A stretch of DNA of 22,763 nt from an uncultured bacterium (GTDB lineage: Bacteria > Latescibacterota > CAZTBA01): positions 1 to 22,763 of the forward strand of contig CAZTBA010000040.1 in NCBI GenBank assembly GCA_964611725.1, written 5' to 3'. The notes beneath the pieces were generated by a model. It was given only the letters and a program-made list of their open reading frames with translations. It was not told the origin of the DNA and did no database searches. A program made the translations under genes and the position numbers. Of the stretch, positions 1,354 to 22,763 are shown in pieces (the first letter of the stretch is position 1; every line of letters begins with the position of its first letter).

Positions 1354-1438
1354 GCTGTCGTTGTTTCAGATATTTACCTGTAGAGACGACCCGGTGGGTC
1401 GTCTCCAAAACAGGAAAAGACAAAACATTTTCCGAAAT
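1354..1438 (+). repeat. conserved ~85-nt intergenic element, copy 1 (hairpin with covariation; consensus GCTGTCG-N3-TTTCAG-N3-TTTAYCTGTAGAGACG-[11 nt]-CGTCTCCAAAACARGAAAAG)
   Basis: The perfect hairpin GAGACGACCC-GGT-GGGTCGTCTC (1383-1405) sits inside flanks that are near-identical to the minus-strand sequence at 19155-19239. It lies 58 nt after the AKR stop and ~320 nt upstream of the ORF starting at 1762. Confidence 0.7.
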
Positions 1439-1473
1439 ACGCTTAGAGATTAAACCTGAATATATAGAGGATC

Positions 1474-1761: not shown

Positions 1762-2469
1762 ATGCCTGGCGTGATGTCCTGGGGTGAAATGGACTGGCTT
1801 TTCCCGGACTTCCGGGACACTGGTCTCATATATCACGGTACACGGGCGGAGCACCTGCCTGCGATCTTCCGAGAGGGCTTGCAGCCGGGTGTTGCTAAAG
1901 ACGGTCACGGCACTATCTACGATGCCCTTTACCGTCATCGTCCGCCGTCAGTTCCTGACTGGGTGGATCCAAGGCGGTGCATCTTCGGGTACATGAACAG
2001 GAAACGGTTTCCGGCCAACAAGTGTGGGGCCATCATTGGTATCCAATGCATCGACAGTGTCCGACAGCGCACATGGTTCGCAGTCAGCAAGTTTTGCGAT
2101 TGGATCTACTGTCCCCGGGAGGCGGGTTACTTCGATACTGAGGCCAGGGCCGCGTACTACAAGCAGGTGGTGGAGCCAGTCTGTGCCAGAGCATATTGGG
2201 ACATGAGCCTATCGTTCGAGACAAACCTGTCCATCCGCCACGACGAGTTGCTCAACACCCAGCAATGCCAGGAGCTGTTGATCTGTCTCGAACGCATTGA
2301 CGCCGACTATCTGTCTTTGCAGGCAGTGACGACTCCCGGGCAAGATCCCGTGCTTCGGACAATGTACCCAGACCTCTTCGATGAAGCAGAGACGAGACTG
2401 AAGCAAGGACTGCCAGTCTCTGAGCAGATCAAAGCGATCGAAGAGCACGCAATCAGTGCCAGGCGCTGA
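1762..2469 (+). CDS. hypothetical protein; N-terminal ~140 aa resemble the ADP-ribosyltransferase (PARP/Tpt1-like) fold, C-terminal ~95 aa unknown
   Basis: 235-aa ORF with ATG at 1762 and a weak SD (AGAAAGG, 10-nt spacer). Residues 22-57 (LIYHGTRAEHLPAIFREGLQPGVAKDGHGTIYDALY) match, from memory, the H-G-S/T beta-strand plus 'I..GL' helix plus 'GxG(I)Y.A' strand shared by the PARP1 catalytic domain (LLWHGSRTTNFAGILSQGL...GKGIYFAD) and KptA/Tpt1 (FLYHGTASRFLDEIKKQGL...HYVHLS). I recognise no other domain. It is preceded by a 465-bp structured leader. Confidence 0.55.
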   Translation: MPGVMSWGEMDWLFPDFRDTGLIYHGTRAEHLPAIFREGLQPGVAKDGHGTIYDALYRHRPPSVPDWVDPRRCIFGYMNRKRFPANKCGAIIGIQCIDSVRQRTWFAVSKFCDWIYCPREAGYFDTEARAAYYKQVVEPVCARAYWDMSLSFETNLSIRHDELLNTQQCQELLICLERIDADYLSLQAVTTPGQDPVLRTMYPDLFDEAETRLKQGLPVSEQIKAIEEHAISARR

Positions 2470-3870: not shown

Positions 3871-4989
3871 ATGCTGACTCCCCGAGAAAACATACTGGAG
3901 GTCTTCCGGCAAGGGACTCCTGAGTGGATTCCACTGGTGACCCATGTGGACCCATACAACCAGCCAAACCGTACAGGTATGGATCCGGCATTGACTGAAG
4001 CCCTGGGAACCGTGCACTGGCATGACGAGAGTACCATCCGCCTCTCACGTTTTCTGGGCCTGGACATCATGGACTACGTCGGCGGACCGGTGCGTATTCG
4101 CAATGAGAACGTCACGGTCGAGGTCACCCAGGAAGGAGACGATACCACCCAAATCTGGCACACTCCGCAGGGCACACTGACCCAGGTGCAAAGACGTTGC
4201 CGGGATGACGGCACGTCCTACGTTGTCGAACACCTCATCAAGAACGCCTCCGACCTGCCGGCGCTGGCAGCCATATTCGAGGACCAAACCCTGATCCTCG
4301 ATACGGACGCAGTGGCCGCAATGCGGAAGCGCCAGGAACTTATCGGCAACGACGGTATACTGCAGTGCTCCATGCCGGGAACGCCGATGGGCATGATGTA
4401 CCGTGTCTACAGCGGAGTAGAGACCCTGGTGTATCTCTACCACGATGCCCCACAGGCACTGGGAGATCTGTTCACGGTCATGGAGACGAACTACCAAAAA
4501 CGGTTGAAAATCAGCCTGGAGGCCCCAGCGGATGTCCACGTGGGCATGGACGACACCTCCACAACGATTATTTCACCGGCCATGTTTGAAGCATGCAACC
4601 TCGAGCTGACGAACCAGAGGGCGGACATATGCCACGAAGTCGGTAAACTCTACTTTCATCACTCTTGCGGCCTCATCCGTGACCTGCTCCCGCTTTATCG
4701 ACGAACCAGAATGGATGCCGTACATGCTTTCACAGAACCTCCCATTGGCAACGTGACGATCGTAGACGGCCGCAAGCTACTGGGCGACAGGATCGCCATA
4801 CGCGGCAATGTGGCTGCGATGGCCGAGGAATCCTGGGAGCCGGAAGCTATGCGGAAGAGCGTCCGCGAGCTCTTCAGGGGCATCACCCCAAGGGATCACG
4901 TTGCGCTCAGTATAACTGCCTACCCCCACAGGACGATTGACCAGATGAAGTTGGTCGTTGAAGCATGTCGAATGTATCGAGACATCTGA
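3871..4989 (+). CDS. uroporphyrinogen decarboxylase (URO-D)/MtaA-CmuA-like family protein, paralog 2
   Basis: 372-aa ORF. The N-terminus MLTPRENILEVFRQGTPEWIPL is the classic URO-D/MtaA opening (MTPRERLLAAL..G...DRVP-like), and 'FHHSCG' corresponds to the (I/V)HxCG motif. Weak SD GGAGAG lies 3 nt before the ATG. Confidence 0.75.
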   Translation: MLTPRENILEVFRQGTPEWIPLVTHVDPYNQPNRTGMDPALTEALGTVHWHDESTIRLSRFLGLDIMDYVGGPVRIRNENVTVEVTQEGDDTTQIWHTPQGTLTQVQRRCRDDGTSYVVEHLIKNASDLPALAAIFEDQTLILDTDAVAAMRKRQELIGNDGILQCSMPGTPMGMMYRVYSGVETLVYLYHDAPQALGDLFTVMETNYQKRLKISLEAPADVHVGMDDTSTTIISPAMFEACNLELTNQRADICHEVGKLYFHHSCGLIRDLLPLYRRTRMDAVHAFTEPPIGNVTIVDGRKLLGDRIAIRGNVAAMAEESWEPEAMRKSVRELFRGITPRDHVALSITAYPHRTIDQMKLVVEACRMYRDI

Positions 4990-18490: not shown

Positions 18491-19111
18491 TTACTTGGCA
18501 GCTTTGCGTATGGCAGCTATGGCCGCATCGTAATCGGGATGCTCGCTCAACTCCGGGATGATCTGTTTATAGGCTATGCGTCCGTCTTTACCTATAACGA
18601 AGATAGATCGGGCAAGGAGTCCCATATCCTTGATCAGGACACCGTAATTCAGTCCGAACTCGCGCCACACATGATCCGACAGCACCAGGACACGATCGAC
18701 CTTCTCAGTCTCACAGAACCGCTTCTGCGCGAAGGGCAGGTCCATGCTGATCGTCATCACTGCGACGTCTGACGGGAGGTTCAATATCTCATCGTTGAAA
18801 CGCTTTGTCTGCAGAGCGCAGACACCCGTATCGAGGCTCGGTACAACGCTGATCAAACTGGCTTTGCCTTTGAAACTTGAGAACTTGACCGGCTGGAATT
18901 CAACGTTCACCACCCGGAAATCAGGGGCCGGATCACCAACCTTGACTTCAGGCCCTAACAGCGTCAAAGGTTTGCCTTTCACGGTCACAAGACCTTCTCT
19001 CTCCTGTGGCGTCATCGTATTTACTCCTTGCGAGAGCCCCTGTTCACCGACAAGTGTGGCAAAGAACAGAACGGAGCACCAGACTATGTATTTTCGAACG
19101 TTCCCTGGCAT
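18491..19111 (-). CDS. tpx: thiol peroxidase (Tpx, atypical 2-Cys peroxiredoxin) with signal-peptide-like N-terminus
   Basis: Strong match from memory to E. coli Tpx: PSLDTGVCA (peroxidatic Cys), DLPFAQKRFC (resolving Cys) and EHPDYDAAIAAI near the C-terminus. The ATG at 19111 gives MPGNVRKYIVWCSVLFFATLVGEQGLSQG, which is n/h/c-region-like. The ORF-track start at 19153 is a TTG adding 14 aa, and it falls inside the conserved intergenic repeat (copy 2). Confidence 0.8.
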   Translation of the reverse strand: MPGNVRKYIVWCSVLFFATLVGEQGLSQGVNTMTPQEREGLVTVKGKPLTLLGPEVKVGDPAPDFRVVNVEFQPVKFSSFKGKASLISVVPSLDTGVCALQTKRFNDEILNLPSDVAVMTISMDLPFAQKRFCETEKVDRVLVLSDHVWREFGLNYGVLIKDMGLLARSIFVIGKDGRIAYKQIIPELSEHPDYDAAIAAIRKAAK

Positions 19112-19154
19112 AAAAGAAGCGAAAGCACTCACCTCCTGATAAAGTCTAGGCAAG

Positions 19155-19239
19155 TTTTAGAAAACATCTTTCCCTTTTCTTGTTTTGGAGACGCCTCATC
19201 GAGGCGTCTCTACAGATAAACACCTGAAAAGTCGACAGC
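19155..19239 (-). repeat. conserved ~85-nt intergenic element, copy 2 (inverted orientation relative to copy 1)
   Basis: The minus strand reads GCTGTCGACTTTTCAGGTGTTTATCTGTAGAGACGCCTCGATGAGGCGTCTCCAAAACAAGAAAAGGG. Flanks are identical to copy 1; the hairpin interior (CCTC/GAGG versus ACCC/GGGT) differs but stays fully paired. It begins 20 nt after the encapsulin stop and runs up to the tpx start region. Confidence 0.7.
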
Positions 19240-19258
19240 GACTATAGAGTCTACCATC

Positions 19259-20071
19259 CTATTTGAGCACACATACCGCCGAAGGCTCCACAAGTCGAAG
19301 CGTAAGGCTCTCAGAGATCACAAACTCATATTCTCCACCCGAAGGCCCCACGAAGCCTGTCATCAGGTCCTGTCCAAGCACGATCGAGGCGAACTGTCGC
19401 CCTGATGCCAGCAGCACAGCGCCAGAGCTGATCGCTGGCGCTTTGACTATGCCGTCGGTCACTGCCGATCTTAGATGCTCCATCTCCGCCATATTGCCCT
19501 GGGGATAGCGCCTGAATAGCAGGTTGTAAAGGGACGGAGCAAGCGCCAGAGTATAGGGACCGTGGAGCCCGGCATCGTCCAACTTGGTGATAGCCTTGAT
19601 GATATCATCAACGGCCGCACCGACCTCAGTCCAGGGCTTCAGTTTCAGGGACTGTGTTCCCTTGGCCGTGAGCAAACCCTCAACCCCCAACGCTTTGGAG
19701 CCATGCAATATGAGAGCGTCCTCCTGTCGTGCACAGGCGATCGCCGCTGCTGCAGCCACTTTCAGATCAAAGGACAGTCCAGTCGCCTCAAATGCTGCGA
19801 TGTCGCGTGCCGACAGACTGAATGTGCTCTGAATCAACGCGACGGGCATGGAAGGGCTTGCCATCATGCTCACACTTTCTGAGGTTGTCTCCTCAACCGC
19901 CGCATCCGGGCCCTGTATGGCTTTGAGACCGAGTCCATAAGGGCCATCCACATGCAGCAATCGACGAGCGCTCAACTGGCCCCTGGCAGCAGCCGTGACC
20001 GTCTCATCAATTTTCTCCCATACCTTTTCATCAAACGGAGCATCTCCACGATGTAGAAACTTTTCAGACAT
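19259..20071 (-). CDS. Family 1 encapsulin nanocompartment shell protein (HK97-fold, linocin M18-like)
   Basis: 270-aa ORF. SD AGGAGG lies 8 nt before the ATG. It is colinear with T. maritima encapsulin from memory: LHRGDAPFDEKVWEKIDETV..RRLLHVDGPYG versus LKRSFAPLTEKQWQEID..RKFVDVEGPYG; GPYTLALAPSLYNLL versus GPYTLVINTDRWINFL; C-terminal ILGQDLMTGFVG...FVISESLTLRLVEPSAVCVLK versus ILGQDLSIGYED...[21 protein letters not shown]. Confidence 0.9.
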   Translation of the reverse strand: MSEKFLHRGDAPFDEKVWEKIDETVTAAARGQLSARRLLHVDGPYGLGLKAIQGPDAAVEETTSESVSMMASPSMPVALIQSTFSLSARDIAAFEATGLSFDLKVAAAAAIACARQEDALILHGSKALGVEGLLTAKGTQSLKLKPWTEVGAAVDDIIKAITKLDDAGLHGPYTLALAPSLYNLLFRRYPQGNMAEMEHLRSAVTDGIVKAPAISSGAVLLASGRQFASIVLGQDLMTGFVGPSGGEYEFVISESLTLRLVEPSAVCVLK

Positions 20072-20170
20072 CGATTCTACCTCCTACCACCAAACATGCA
20101 TTTCCTAAAGACATCTCAAAGTCCAAGCCTATCTAATCCATATGGTATTACCTGTTCGAAGCGCGAGATA

Positions 20171-20530
20171 TTATTCTTTCATATCCCCCACTGTAGGGAT
20201 CGATTTACTTTCGGATTCCGGGGATTCGCCCCTTTCGATCTCCTCGGCGATTTCGCTCACCTCCGCAGCGCCATCCGCCAGAAGTTTCTCCTCATCCGGC
20301 AGCAATATATTGAGCAAACGCTGGAACTCGCCTGCGTGCACGCGCTCCTCGTTGGCTATATCCTGCAATACTGCCTTCGCCAGCTTATTATCGGTAGCGT
20401 CAGCCAAAGCTTCGTAGAGGTGAACCGCTTCTTCCTCCGCCGAGAGTGTCATGCGGATAGCCCTGGTCAGTTCGCGCGCCGTCAATTTACGAGGAACCAC
20501 GCCGCTGAACGGATTGATAAATTCAGCCAT
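20171..20530 (-). CDS. encapsulated ferritin-like protein (EncFtn/Flp) cargo with C-terminal targeting peptide
   Basis: 119-aa ORF immediately upstream of and co-oriented with the encapsulin gene. SD AAAGGAG lies 8 nt before the ATG. It has two E-x-x-H ferroxidase-type motifs (EEEAVH, NEERVH) on predicted helices, as in EncFtn. The acidic linker then ends in SIPTVGDMKE, which resembles the TVGSLK-type cargo-loading peptide. Confidence 0.85.
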   Translation of the reverse strand: MAEFINPFSGVVPRKLTARELTRAIRMTLSAEEEAVHLYEALADATDNKLAKAVLQDIANEERVHAGEFQRLLNILLPDEEKLLADGAAEVSEIAEEIERGESPESESKSIPTVGDMKE

Positions 20531-20650
20531 TCTACTATCTCCTTTCTGCCAAATGCTCAGGTTTCTTATAGATCCCTGAACTAAAAATACAGTGACCCTA
20601 CTCTTCTGAGGGCTGGTGTCTTGCCTTGGATATTATTGTTTTCTAATCAT

Positions 20651-21721
20651 TTATCCAAAATGCGCAGAAGGCCCTTTTTCTCCGCTCTCGGCCCTGGTGT
20701 CCATATAGTGTCCATCGGGGTCTATTTTCTCGATTGAAGACCGCAAATGATCAGGCGCAAGATGGGCATACCTCATAGTGGTTTTAATGTCCCTATGGCC
20801 TAAAAGCTTCTGCACCGTTGCCAGATCCACTCCTGCCATTACAAGGTGGGATGCAAAAGTGTGACGGAGATCGTGAAAGCGAATGTGAGGTAATCCGGCT
20901 TTCCTCAAAGCTTTCTCGAAGCTCCACCATATTCTGTGAAATCTATTCCCATCAGGTTTGCAGAATACATAGTTGCTTGAGATGTGGTGGGGTAGTCCGC
21001 TCAAGATACCGTACAGGAAATTACTCATCGGTATGGCTCTTGGCTCGTAGTTCTTGGGATGCCAGTCCTCCTTGTTATTGACAGTGATTATCCTGTTCCT
21101 GAAGTCTACATCAGACCACTGAAGGTTGAATATCTCTGATTTCCTCATACCAGTTTGAAGAGCTGTAGCTACCATGGCATGGATATAGCCGCTGCAATTA
21201 TCCAGAAGCCTTCTGGTTTCTTCCCTACTGAGGTATTTGGGGGGAAGCGGACTTTCCTTGAGCCCTCTAACTCCAGAAGCAGGATTTGACCTTAAGTAAC
21301 CCCAGTCAACAGCTTTTCTCAGCATCTTTTTGATGGCAAATAATTCCATATTTACAGTTCCTTCTTTGACCCGAATCACCCTCTTTTCTTTGTAGCTTTC
21401 TATCATCCTGCTTGTAATATCGAATAGATGCTTCCCCTTAAAATAAGGAACCAGATGGACATTTACGCTGATTATATCCCTTTCATAACTACGCCCGGAT
21501 TTGTTGGTCTTAGAATACTCGAGATATTCCTTTGCGTAATCCTCGAATAAGATTTTCTTGGTCTCACTCACACCAAGGATCTCACCCCTGGCAATTTTGA
21601 GCTGCACATCCTTTAAAGCAAGCTCAGCAAGCTGTTTTGAAGGGCCGATCTTCCTACGCTTTCTCTGGCCATTGTGGTAATAGTCGATGTACCAGTTATC
21701 ATCCTTCTTGTAGACACCCAT
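20651..21721 (-). CDS. tyrosine site-specific recombinase / phage-type integrase
   Basis: 356-aa ORF. SD GGAGGT lies 7 nt before the ATG. The C-terminal catalytic region HDLRHTFASHLVMAGVDLATVQKLLGHRDIKTTMRYAHL has the H-x-x-R box and the nucleophile Tyr in RYAHL. An upstream R in 'TGMRKSE' gives the family's box-I Arg. The N-terminal ~100 aa are SAM-like/arm-binding. Confidence 0.9.
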   Translation of the reverse strand: MGVYKKDDNWYIDYYHNGQRKRRKIGPSKQLAELALKDVQLKIARGEILGVSETKKILFEDYAKEYLEYSKTNKSGRSYERDIISVNVHLVPYFKGKHLFDITSRMIESYKEKRVIRVKEGTVNMELFAIKKMLRKAVDWGYLRSNPASGVRGLKESPLPPKYLSREETRRLLDNCSGYIHAMVATALQTGMRKSEIFNLQWSDVDFRNRIITVNNKEDWHPKNYEPRAIPMSNFLYGILSGLPHHISSNYVFCKPDGNRFHRIWWSFEKALRKAGLPHIRFHDLRHTFASHLVMAGVDLATVQKLLGHRDIKTTMRYAHLAPDHLRSSIEKIDPDGHYMDTRAESGEKGPSAHFG

Positions 21722-21805
21722 CGGTCATACCTCCTTCCCTTTCGATGGGCTCCAGACACAAACGTAAATTAAAGCGTCCGGAGTATCCCGTCAAGAGATT
21801 TCTGC

Positions 21806-22033
21806 CTACTGAAGAGAATCGTCAGCCGGCTCGTTCAACTCCTCTAACCAACCCTCTATATCGGACATTCTGAATCTCAGATGCCTCCCGATCTTCAAGA
21901 AGGGGATTTTCCTTTGGAATGTCAGTCTATAGATATAGCTCTTCTTAAGACGCAAGATCCCACACAAATCATCAATTGTTAAAAGAGATTCAGAGGTTGT
22001 GTCTTGGCTACAAGCAATCCTGTTCATATTCAT
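21806..22033 (-). CDS. excisionase/AlpA-type helix-turn-helix DNA-binding protein (HTH_17-like)
   Basis: 75-aa ORF directly upstream of and co-oriented with the integrase. LLTIDDLCGILRLKKSYIYRLTFQRKIPFLKIGRHLRFRMSDIEGWLE fits the excisionase-family HTH pattern (L.i.e.a..L.vs.stiyrl...g.iP..kiGr..rf....l..wl). No SD is visible. Confidence 0.6.
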   Translation of the reverse strand: MNMNRIACSQDTTSESLLTIDDLCGILRLKKSYIYRLTFQRKIPFLKIGRHLRFRMSDIEGWLEELNEPADDSLQ

Positions 22034-22140
22034 ATCATCCTATGGGTAGATGAAAAAGGACTGATCCAGTCTCCCTTTATAGCCTGCCCCGGTCAGGAGG
22101 AGGAAATGAATAACGAACACCCGGAGCAGGCTGTGTCACT

Positions 22141-22763
22141 CTATTCTTCCGATTCTTCTTCAGTGACTTCCTCCGGATCTTCCGGCTTTTTCCTTATCTC
22201 CAGCGCCACGAACTTAAATACTTCGATGAGCTTAGCAGGACTCTCCATGAGCACAGTGCGGATATTATTGCTGTTTTCATCTTTGATCCTCTCATCGCCA
22301 AATGCGTCCGCTACACGGCTCTTGAGACTGTCGTCATAATCCCAACCACACCTGTGACTGTAGTTGTCATAATCAGTGATACAGGCTGCAAGGATCTCTA
22401 CCAGGTCTTCAGTTCGGACACGGACATAGTCATCAGGGACAGACATAGTGGCGTGCATCTGACTGGGATCCCGGTCCGTTAACGTTTCGTTATCCTGTCT
22501 GATCTCCTCAAGAGCTTTCTCAGTACTCTCCGAAATATCCGCAAGTCTCTTCTCACGCCTCTCCTTATTCACCTGGCGGGTGTGAGCTGTCTTTTTCCTT
22601 TTACAGCACTCAGGATCCAGACAGATAGGTTCAGGATCTTCATCCTCTGGGCTTGATACTGACATCTTTCTCTTATCGCAGCTCTCGCACTCTGTCGTAT
22701 CGAAGCTAACCCATCCGAGTCTCTCGTATGAGTTCCAGGCAAGACCGGACCTGTCGATGATCC
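22141..22763 (-). CDS. hypothetical acidic protein with N-terminal Cys cluster (5' end truncated by window edge)
   Basis: The ORF track starts it at ATG 22665. The reading frame stays open through the window end (...IIDRSGLAWNSYERLGWVSFDTTECESCDKRK-MSVSS...), so the gene probably begins beyond 22763. CxxC...CLDPECC suggests a Zn-ribbon-like motif. The C-terminal third is highly acidic (EDPEEVTEEESEE). It is co-oriented with excisionase and integrase. Confidence 0.5.
   Translation of the reverse strand, partial: IIDRSGLAWNSYERLGWVSFDTTECESCDKRKMSVSSPEDEDPEPICLDPECCKRKKTAHTRQVNKERREKRLADISESTEKALEEIRQDNETLTDRDPSQMHATMSVPDDYVRVRTEDLVEILAACITDYDNYSHRCGWDYDDSLKSRVADAFGDERIKDENSNNIRTVLMESPAKLIEVFKFVALEIRKKPEDPEEVTEEESEE

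Follow-up and report, generated by a model that had tools for sequence, protein, structure and literature searches.

REP sequences and the Y1 transposases linked to them are the closest described systems for the repeat discussed here. GTAG-tagged REPs form a super-family of hairpins with stems of 6-13 bp and loops of 2-3 nt, which occur as singles, dimers, and clusters and fall into sub-families whose stems differ by complementary residues (Di Nocera et al. 2013, PMC3733652). Uni-REPs keep close to the 3' end of the preceding ORF and vary in their distance from the next one, REPs are also found inside ORFs, and many are argued to be transcribed (PMC3733652). The TnpA_REP proteins of groups 2 and 3 cleave single-stranded REP at a CT located 5' or 3' of the hairpin, and this cleavage depends on GTAG and on the integrity of the stem (Corneloup et al. 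2021, PMC8266576). TnpA_REP subclass 2.4 (Bertels group 4), which carries the motifs NH[IFV]H, WQ, and YIxNNP, is known from Cyanobacteria, Bacteroidetes, and scattered phyla; its REPs are of the "canonical long" or "double foot" type, and REPs that lie in frame within tnpA_REP, between HuH and Y, are unique to this subclass (Quentin et al. 2018, PMC6006769).

Here we describe a pair of hairpins from a window of 22,763 nt, that is, the whole stretch of DNA that was analyzed, which makes up a complete MAG contig of an uncultured lineage. We favor, with a probability of about 80%, the hypothesis that these hairpins are GTAG-tagged REPs of the kind that accompanies RAYT/TnpA_REP proteins of subclass 2.4 (Bertels group 4).

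Two modules and their hairpins

The core TGTAGAGACG-N11-CGTCTCCAAAAC occurs at 1379-1411 on the plus strand and at 19182-19214 on the minus strand, with two matches in the window against none in 100 shuffles. A repeat search of the window returned the two copies as a 93-nt inverted pair that is 74% complementary, and their mean column identity is 87% in an alignment of 97 columns trimmed to 1350-1445 and 19148-19243. Both copies therefore lie where a sequence-only reading of this DNA had placed them, but the part that they share is longer at its 3' side than had been described and reaches 1445 and 19147. Module copy 1 (1354-1445, plus strand) consists of a left flank, GCTGTCG..TTTCAG..TTTACCT, followed by REP 1 and by a tail, CAAAACAGGAAAAG...TTTTCC..GCTTA. 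Module copy 2 (19147-19239, minus strand) likewise consists of left flank, REP 2, and tail, and ends 9 nt before the AGGAGG that precedes a Redoxin-type gene.

REP 1 (1380-1405, plus strand, GTAGAGACGACCCGGTGGGTCGTCTC) and REP 2 (19188-19213, minus strand, GTAGAGACGCCTCGATGAGGCGTCTC) each span 26 nt including the foot and form a perfect 10-bp stem with a 3-nt loop. The GTAG foot is located at 1380-1383 in copy 1 and at 19213-19210 in copy 2, with GTA unpaired and the last G opening the stem, and in both copies a CT stands directly 5' of GTAG. Foot and stem base are the same in the two REPs, which share the formula GTAG-AGACG-N11-CGTCT-C. Folded as single-stranded DNA, the hairpins reach -11.2 and -11.5 kcal/mol (z = -4.1 and -5.2); folded as RNA, the 111-nt regions of the two copies reach -28.9 and -35.1 kcal/mol (z = -2.8 and -3.4), and the antisense strand folds as well as the sense strand. 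An outer CCTG/CAGG pairing in the fold of copy 1 was rejected because it is not kept in copy 2. The tails contain a weak second hairpin, RGAAAA-N9/10-TTTTCY (1413-1433 and 19159-19180), formed by GGAAAA at 1413-1418 and TTTTCC at 1428-1433 on the plus strand in copy 1 and by AGAAAA at 19175-19180 and TTTTCT at 19159-19164 on the minus strand in copy 2; it shows one further compensated pair, and its folding energy is distinct from that of shuffles in copy 1 and not in copy 2.

REPs 1 and 2 are the sole strong GTAG-tagged hairpins on the contig, on which weaker candidates are no more frequent than chance allows, numbering seven against 4.2 +/- 2.1 in shuffled sequence. We note two further palindromes in the window. 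One is a 32-nt inverted repeat at 1589-1707, 75% complementary with arms 55 nt apart, which contains GTGTAGGGTT...AACCCTACAC and is thus another GTAG-bearing palindrome; it lies within the 316-nt gene-free spacer between copy 1 and the ORF at 1762-2469. The other, at 4413-4443 on the minus strand (GTGGTAGAGAtacaccagggTCTCTAC), is a 7-bp GTAGAGA/TCTCTAC hairpin resembling the "double-foot" type inside a URO-D-like gene (3871-4989), and it may be due to chance or may be an old intragenic REP remnant.

The 11-nt interior of the hairpin had been described as different in sequence yet self-complementary in both copies. The compensated changes are real, but they affect only two of the four variable stem pairs (A-T versus C-G and C-G versus T-A, both compensated, in the upper stem), so that two of the ten pairs have changed on both sides. 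In a slid-partner control 100% of cells were paired against 34-59%, which shows that the pairing is real, and the covariation score, calculated from two sequences only, was equalled by 69 of 500 shuffles. The covariation between the copies is thus real but thin. The palindrome has been kept despite a divergence of ~15-25% in the flanks of the copies. The earlier view that the stem-loop is maintained rather than drifting was right.

Copy 1 follows an AKR gene, the stop codon of which lies at 1294-1296, and copy 2 follows an encapsulin gene with its stop codon at 19259-19261. The distance from stop codon to GTAG is 84 nt for copy 1 and 46 nt for copy 2, and both copies are located between co-directional ORFs on the sense strand, a gene context that the sequence-only reading had described correctly. 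The AKR of the window is closest to Chloroflexota AKRs. The ORF at 1762-2469 (plus strand) had been termed ART-like; a Pfam search at E <= 0.001 gave no match for it. Copy 2 is followed by a Redoxin/AhpC-type gene, and the ORF directly upstream of encapsulin is rubrerythrin-like. In three relatives (L053-L055), encapsulin belongs to a long oxidative-stress cluster that also includes Fur, rubrerythrins, Redoxin, a multihaem cytochrome, desulfoferrodoxin, ferritin, and SOD; in the window (18491-20530, minus strand) only the rubrerythrin-like, encapsulin, and Redoxin genes are still together, followed by a DUF4838/GH67N protein. Directly upstream of these three genes lies a tyrosine recombinase of the phage integrase family (20651-21721, minus strand), and the stretch that holds it, 20000-22763, has a G+C content of 0.44-0.48 versus about 0.55. 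This stretch may be the edge of an integrated element; the contig carries no tRNA gene that would mark an integration site for the neighboring integrase.

Neither region has an Rfam match at the gathering threshold, and at E <= 10 the matches consist of miRNA and lncRNA noise with E > 1. A promoter and terminator scan of both strands called neither copy. On its 3' side the hairpin runs into CAAAAC, the tail beginning with CAAAACAGGAAAAG, with no T-tract, whereas an intrinsic terminator combines a G+C-rich hairpin with a U-tract directly behind it. The earlier statement that the element is not a canonical intrinsic terminator stands.

For comparison with relatives we used encapsulin and AKR loci amounting to about 130 kb in total. 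The element is absent from the three encapsulin loci (about 73% identity) and from four AKR loci (L074-L077, 84-86% identity, the named members being Chloroflexota). At these seven loci a comparison of orthologous sites showed no synteny and no usable empty site, and the spacers are unrelated in sequence. Such an absence agrees with a dispersed repeat that is specific to the lineage; a conserved regulatory site would not fit it.

The hairpin class and its link to Y1 transposases

A search for GTAGAGACG-N5-17-CGTCTCCAAAAC retrieved 52 loci from contigs representing one genome per species, and a metagenome scan with the flank-extended core retrieved 14 loci, none of them with the flanks of the window. 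In total, the class comprises 116 hairpin instances in 69 loci, and its hosts include Nostoc, Calothrix, Bacteroidales, Prevotellaceae, Chitinophagaceae, Acidobacteria, Calditrichia, Ignavibacteria, Chlorobiota, and Nitrospirales, among others. Across 70 distinct inserts the variable part is mostly self-complementary, well above the chance level, with a mean of 2.4 consecutive pairs against 0.46 after shuffling. The hairpin is multi-copy in other genomes, where it forms inverted doublets of the type GTAGAGACG..CGTCTC ... GAGACG..CGTCTCTAC (L018, L024, L028, L031, and L066) as well as tandem arrays (L043, L051, L062, and L066). Single-foot members lie in co-directional (39), convergent (20), and divergent (5) contexts.

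The flanks of the window modules, ~35 nt on each side, were found in none of the genome and metagenome loci of the class. In the sequences compared, a covariance model of the module detected only the two window copies (117-119 bits), and its matches elsewhere were driven by the core and scored at most 44 bits. Judged by sequence comparison, the module flanks are private to this lineage. Twelve Nostoc loci (L006, L010, L011, L017, L020-L022, L026, L039, and L048-L050) offer a second case of a class REP embedded in a longer lineage-specific carrier: the REP core, with insert GCGATTTATCG and one bulged base in its stem, is central in a unit of ~110 nt that has its own terminal inverted repeats of ~15 nt, CAATACAGTTCAGAT...ATCTGAACCGTATTG.

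In other genomes the class is linked to genes for Y1 transposases, which were found through ORFs located between paired hairpins and then by tblastn. The ORF at 3906-4430 of L060 (175 aa) has as its best NCBIfam match NF047646, the REP-associated tyrosine transposase (E = 8e-12), together with a weak match to Pfam Y1_Tnp, and it is flanked on both sides by units of ~160 nt bounded by the class hairpin. Its homologs adjoin or surround hairpins in L044, L051, and L036, and NF047646 is also matched in L044 (E = 4e-15), L070 (E = 4e-16), and L071 (E = 5e-12). These proteins score 45-59 bits against an NCBIfam equivalog cutoff of 80 and lie at or below the Pfam Y1_Tnp gathering threshold, and their assignment as RAYT is based on the identity of the best match, motifs, JGI names, and the fit to the published description of the subclass. 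Linkage of the REPtron type, in which a gene is flanked by the same REP, was found for the class in L036, L044, L051, L060, L070, and L071. The protein family numbers at least 5,935 clusters, and many of its members are named RayT by JGI.

The motifs expected for subclass 2.4 are found as NHIH, WQ, and YIRNN in L060 and as NHVH, WQ, and YIINNP in L070, the latter together with an in-frame GTAGAGACGCAAAATCTTGCGTCTCTAC. Furthermore, the RAYT-like genes contain in-frame REP hairpins directly behind the HUH motif (L044, 3848-3914; L051, 146-1047; L070, 6551-6578; L071, 10334-10361; and L072, 10304-10400). The genes of L070 and L071 have identical hairpins on either side and one in frame within, and L051 contains five in-frame hairpin units of 60 nt. 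The peptide VETQxxASL, encoded by GTAGAGACGCAA[A/G]ATCTTGCGTCTCTAC in L070 and L071, follows directly after the HUH motif in 68 of the 120 best homologs, some of which carry 2-4 tandem copies. In-frame REPs in RAYT-like genes are an already published hallmark of subclass 2.4 (PMC6006769). A literature search returned nothing for the peptide VETQNFASL and its variants and only PCR primers for the 9-mer GTAGAGACG.

A domain search and tblastn with RAYT proteins revealed no Y1/RAYT gene in the 22,763 nt of the window. We also considered whether the module might be what is left of a RAYT gene that had a REP within it, a possibility rejected since tblastn gave no match in the window and since the frame that reads through the module is unlike the part of RAYT that follows the insert.

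The window copies resemble GTAG-tagged REPs (PMC3733652; Nunvar et al. 2010) in several respects. Both are palindromes within the range of 20-40 nt, and they have the GT[AG]G foot at the 5' side in its GTAG form, a 10-bp stem that falls within 6-13 bp, and a short loop of 3 nt. Both are extragenic and lie near the stop codon of the upstream gene between co-directional ORFs, which is among the co-directional and convergent settings of these REPs, and sub-variants with complementary stem differences are seen between the copies (2 of 10 pairs) and among the 70 class inserts. Class members likewise occur as singles, dimers, and clusters, some of them inside ORFs. In contrast to described GTAG-tagged REPs, the stem AGACG/CGTCT could not be matched to any of the 24 named families in the text and supplements of PMC3733652, where GTAGAGAC does not occur and whose family consensus sequences stand in a figure; moreover, the REP described here sits in a longer private module. 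GTAG-tagged REPs are dispersed through their genomes at high copy number, and the one contig analyzed here carries two. The likeness to subclass 2.4 REPs (PMC6006769) lies in the class, the hairpin of which flanks Y1 genes of about 170-260 aa and lies in frame within them, many members being "double foot" (GTAG...CTAC). The window copies differ from these in that they are single-foot, with CCAAAAC rather than CTAC on the 3' side, and in that no subclass 2.4 gene is present on their contig.

This comparison bears on how the compensated changes should be read. They had been taken as an argument for a selected RNA structure, yet GTAG-tagged REP families are already described as having a constant foot and a top that varies while staying self-complementary (PMC3733652). 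A DNA hairpin needs a self-complementary stem, so its variants survive only as complementary pairs, which gives the appearance of covariation. The inference of an RNA structure is therefore unsupported, given that the same pattern is seen in 70 distinct inserts across many phyla and that these hairpins are tied to a Y1 transposase acting on ssDNA hairpins. No RNA function is needed to explain the "covariation" or the gene context, for which published REP biology accounts, and the REP/MITE-like repeat that had been listed among several candidate identities is supported by the class sequence, the RAYT linkage, and the agreement with the literature.

A third, hairpin-less copy of the flanks

The flanks of the module occur a third time at 1294-1349 on the minus strand (..ATTTCAGGTG-CTATC-AG-CAAAAAC..TTTCTGAAACTTGCCTA), without the hairpin. 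When the REP is deleted from copy 2, the third copy aligns with it end to end at a score of 20, which none of 2000 shuffles reached (3.3 +/- 1.8, maximum 12). The third copy meets copy 1 head to head at CAATTG (1349-1354), and its terminus contains the AKR stop codon TAG (1294-1296). The element can thus no longer be described as two-copy, a count that is an artifact of viewing one contig. The 8-mer TAGGCAAG at 1294-1301, which consists of the stop codon and 5 nt, is also present in two Chloroflexota AKR orthologs (L076, 10516-10523, and L077, 5756-5763). This could be a coincidence, ancestral sequence, or a preferred target, and the exact end of the third copy is uncertain as a result.

Together with copy 1, the third copy forms a 150-nt dimer at locus 1 that folds as a long ssDNA hairpin (z = -3.5), and the inverted dimer taken at its full 155 nt (1294-1448) has inverted ends, beginning with TAGGCAAG and closing with ..GCTTA. 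Locus 1 in this respect resembles the REPINs (Bertels and Rainey 2011, PMC3116915), which are likewise inverted dimers and long ssDNA hairpins, and singlets such as locus 2 are expected from decayed REPINs. However, a REPIN consists of two inverted REPs with a short spacer and thus carries a REP in each arm, whereas each locus here has one REP and the left arm of locus 1 has none. Since the third copy has flanks and no REP, locus 1 corresponds to a REPIN-like inverted dimer minus one REP and locus 2 to a singlet.

The modules with a REP (copies 1 and 2) and without one (1294-1349) might represent a natural pair of filled and empty sites, or the carrier might be a new composite non-autonomous element that uses the REP as a handle for mobilization; we regard this proposal as unlikely though worth stating. 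The junctions that it compares are ..TATC^TGTAGAGACG..CGTCTC^CAAAAC in the filled state and ..TATC-AG-CAAAAAC in the empty state. If the pair were a true one, a subclass 2.4 RAYT would insert or excise a single 26-nt REP at a defined junction.

Alternative explanations and significance

An alternative reading is that the element is a lineage-specific RNA element of the 3' untranslated region, acting as a stabilizer, attenuator, or non-canonical terminator, with a hairpin selected as RNA and only a secondary likeness to REPs. Both copies lie on the sense strand shortly after a stop codon, the RNA stems of the 111-nt regions are strong, many REPs are argued to be transcribed (PMC3733652), and among class singlets in co-directional contexts 28 are sense and 11 antisense, as counted from crude ORF calls at loci that are not independent. 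The E. coli REP/BIME elements, known as mRNA 3' stabilizers or attenuators, likewise place a stable stem-loop without a U-tract in the 3' untranslated region of the upstream gene, although they belong to another sequence family and another RAYT group (subclass 2.2 / group 2) and have bulged REP stems. On the other hand, the U-tract, a terminator call, and an Rfam match are all missing, the orthologous junctions of relatives lack the element, the opposite strand folds equally well, and compensated pairs are equally expected of a DNA hairpin. In addition, the class hairpin is found in antisense orientation, between convergent genes, within ORFs, and around transposase genes. Taken together with the hairpin-less copy of the flanks, the missing Rfam match and the absence at the junctions of relatives also tell against the small RNA, the processing module, and the combined terminator and promoter that had been suggested, and we consider a primary RNA element quite improbable. 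A weaker form of this idea, in which a REP has been co-opted for a role in the 3' untranslated region, is possible and compatible with the REP reading.

The hairpin-less flanks at 1294-1349 could also point to a MITE whose parent would be an unrelated IS encoding a DDE transposase, in which case the mobile unit would be the ~92-nt module or the 155-nt dimer (1294-1448) and the REP a passenger inserted in one ancestral copy. The inverted ends of locus 1 and the long hairpin of its dimer are in line with this, as is the Nostoc REP core inside a ~110-nt unit with 15-nt terminal inverted repeats of its own. Nevertheless, REPINs likewise form long hairpins with inverted ends, inverted arms are seen at locus 1 only and copy 2 has no left inverted arm, no target-site duplication is definable, and three copies are too few to set boundaries. 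Furthermore, the window contains neither a parent IS nor an IS transposase, and its integrase is a tyrosine recombinase. We hold this origin to be about as improbable as a primary RNA element, or slightly more so. As to a duplication that is due to chance or purely local and belongs to no family, the flanks were indeed not found elsewhere in the class loci searched, the organism itself being represented by one contig, but a widespread RAYT-linked class has exactly this foot and stem base, and the palindrome has outlasted the divergence of the flanks. With three copies at two loci that lie 17.7 kb apart and on opposite strands, the arrangement is neither tandem nor segmental, and chance duplication is effectively excluded.

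If the hairpins are GTAG-tagged REPs, as we favor, then by analogy with the in vitro behavior of groups 2 and 3 a single-copy gene elsewhere in the genome would encode a HUH/Y1 enzyme that binds the hairpin when the GTAG strand is single-stranded. Such an enzyme would require the GTAG foot and an intact stem and would cleave at the nearby CT, and cleavage and mobilization would spread the repeat to new intergenic sites, the REP itself being non-autonomous. We infer or assume, for this MAG, the cognate RAYT, the high copy number, and the mode of movement. In this lineage the REP would travel inside the ~92-nt module, the flanks of which also exist without it. Because these flanks are found with no other class REP and have an inverted partner without a REP, the mobile unit may not be the REP itself. 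The sense-strand position of both copies, a short way behind stop codons, makes it probable that they are transcribed, and a secondary stabilizing effect on 3' ends is conceivable.

We read the element as a lineage-specific repeat of an ordinary kind rather than as a new regulatory RNA. The main value of this finding is correct annotation, as a hairpin in two 3' untranslated regions with apparent covariation is easily mistaken for a new structured RNA or an unusual terminator. The class can be searched with the simple pattern GTAGAGACG-N9-11-CGTCTC, and the present case adds an uncultured lineage to those that carry the GTAGAGACG-type REP of subclass 2.4 RAYTs. The third copy, which has no hairpin, offers a modest lead on the way in which a REP enters or leaves its carrier sequence and, should the filled and empty sites prove to be a true pair, counting such sites genome-wide could yield a first in vivo footprint of how REPs move in a RAYT group not yet assayed.
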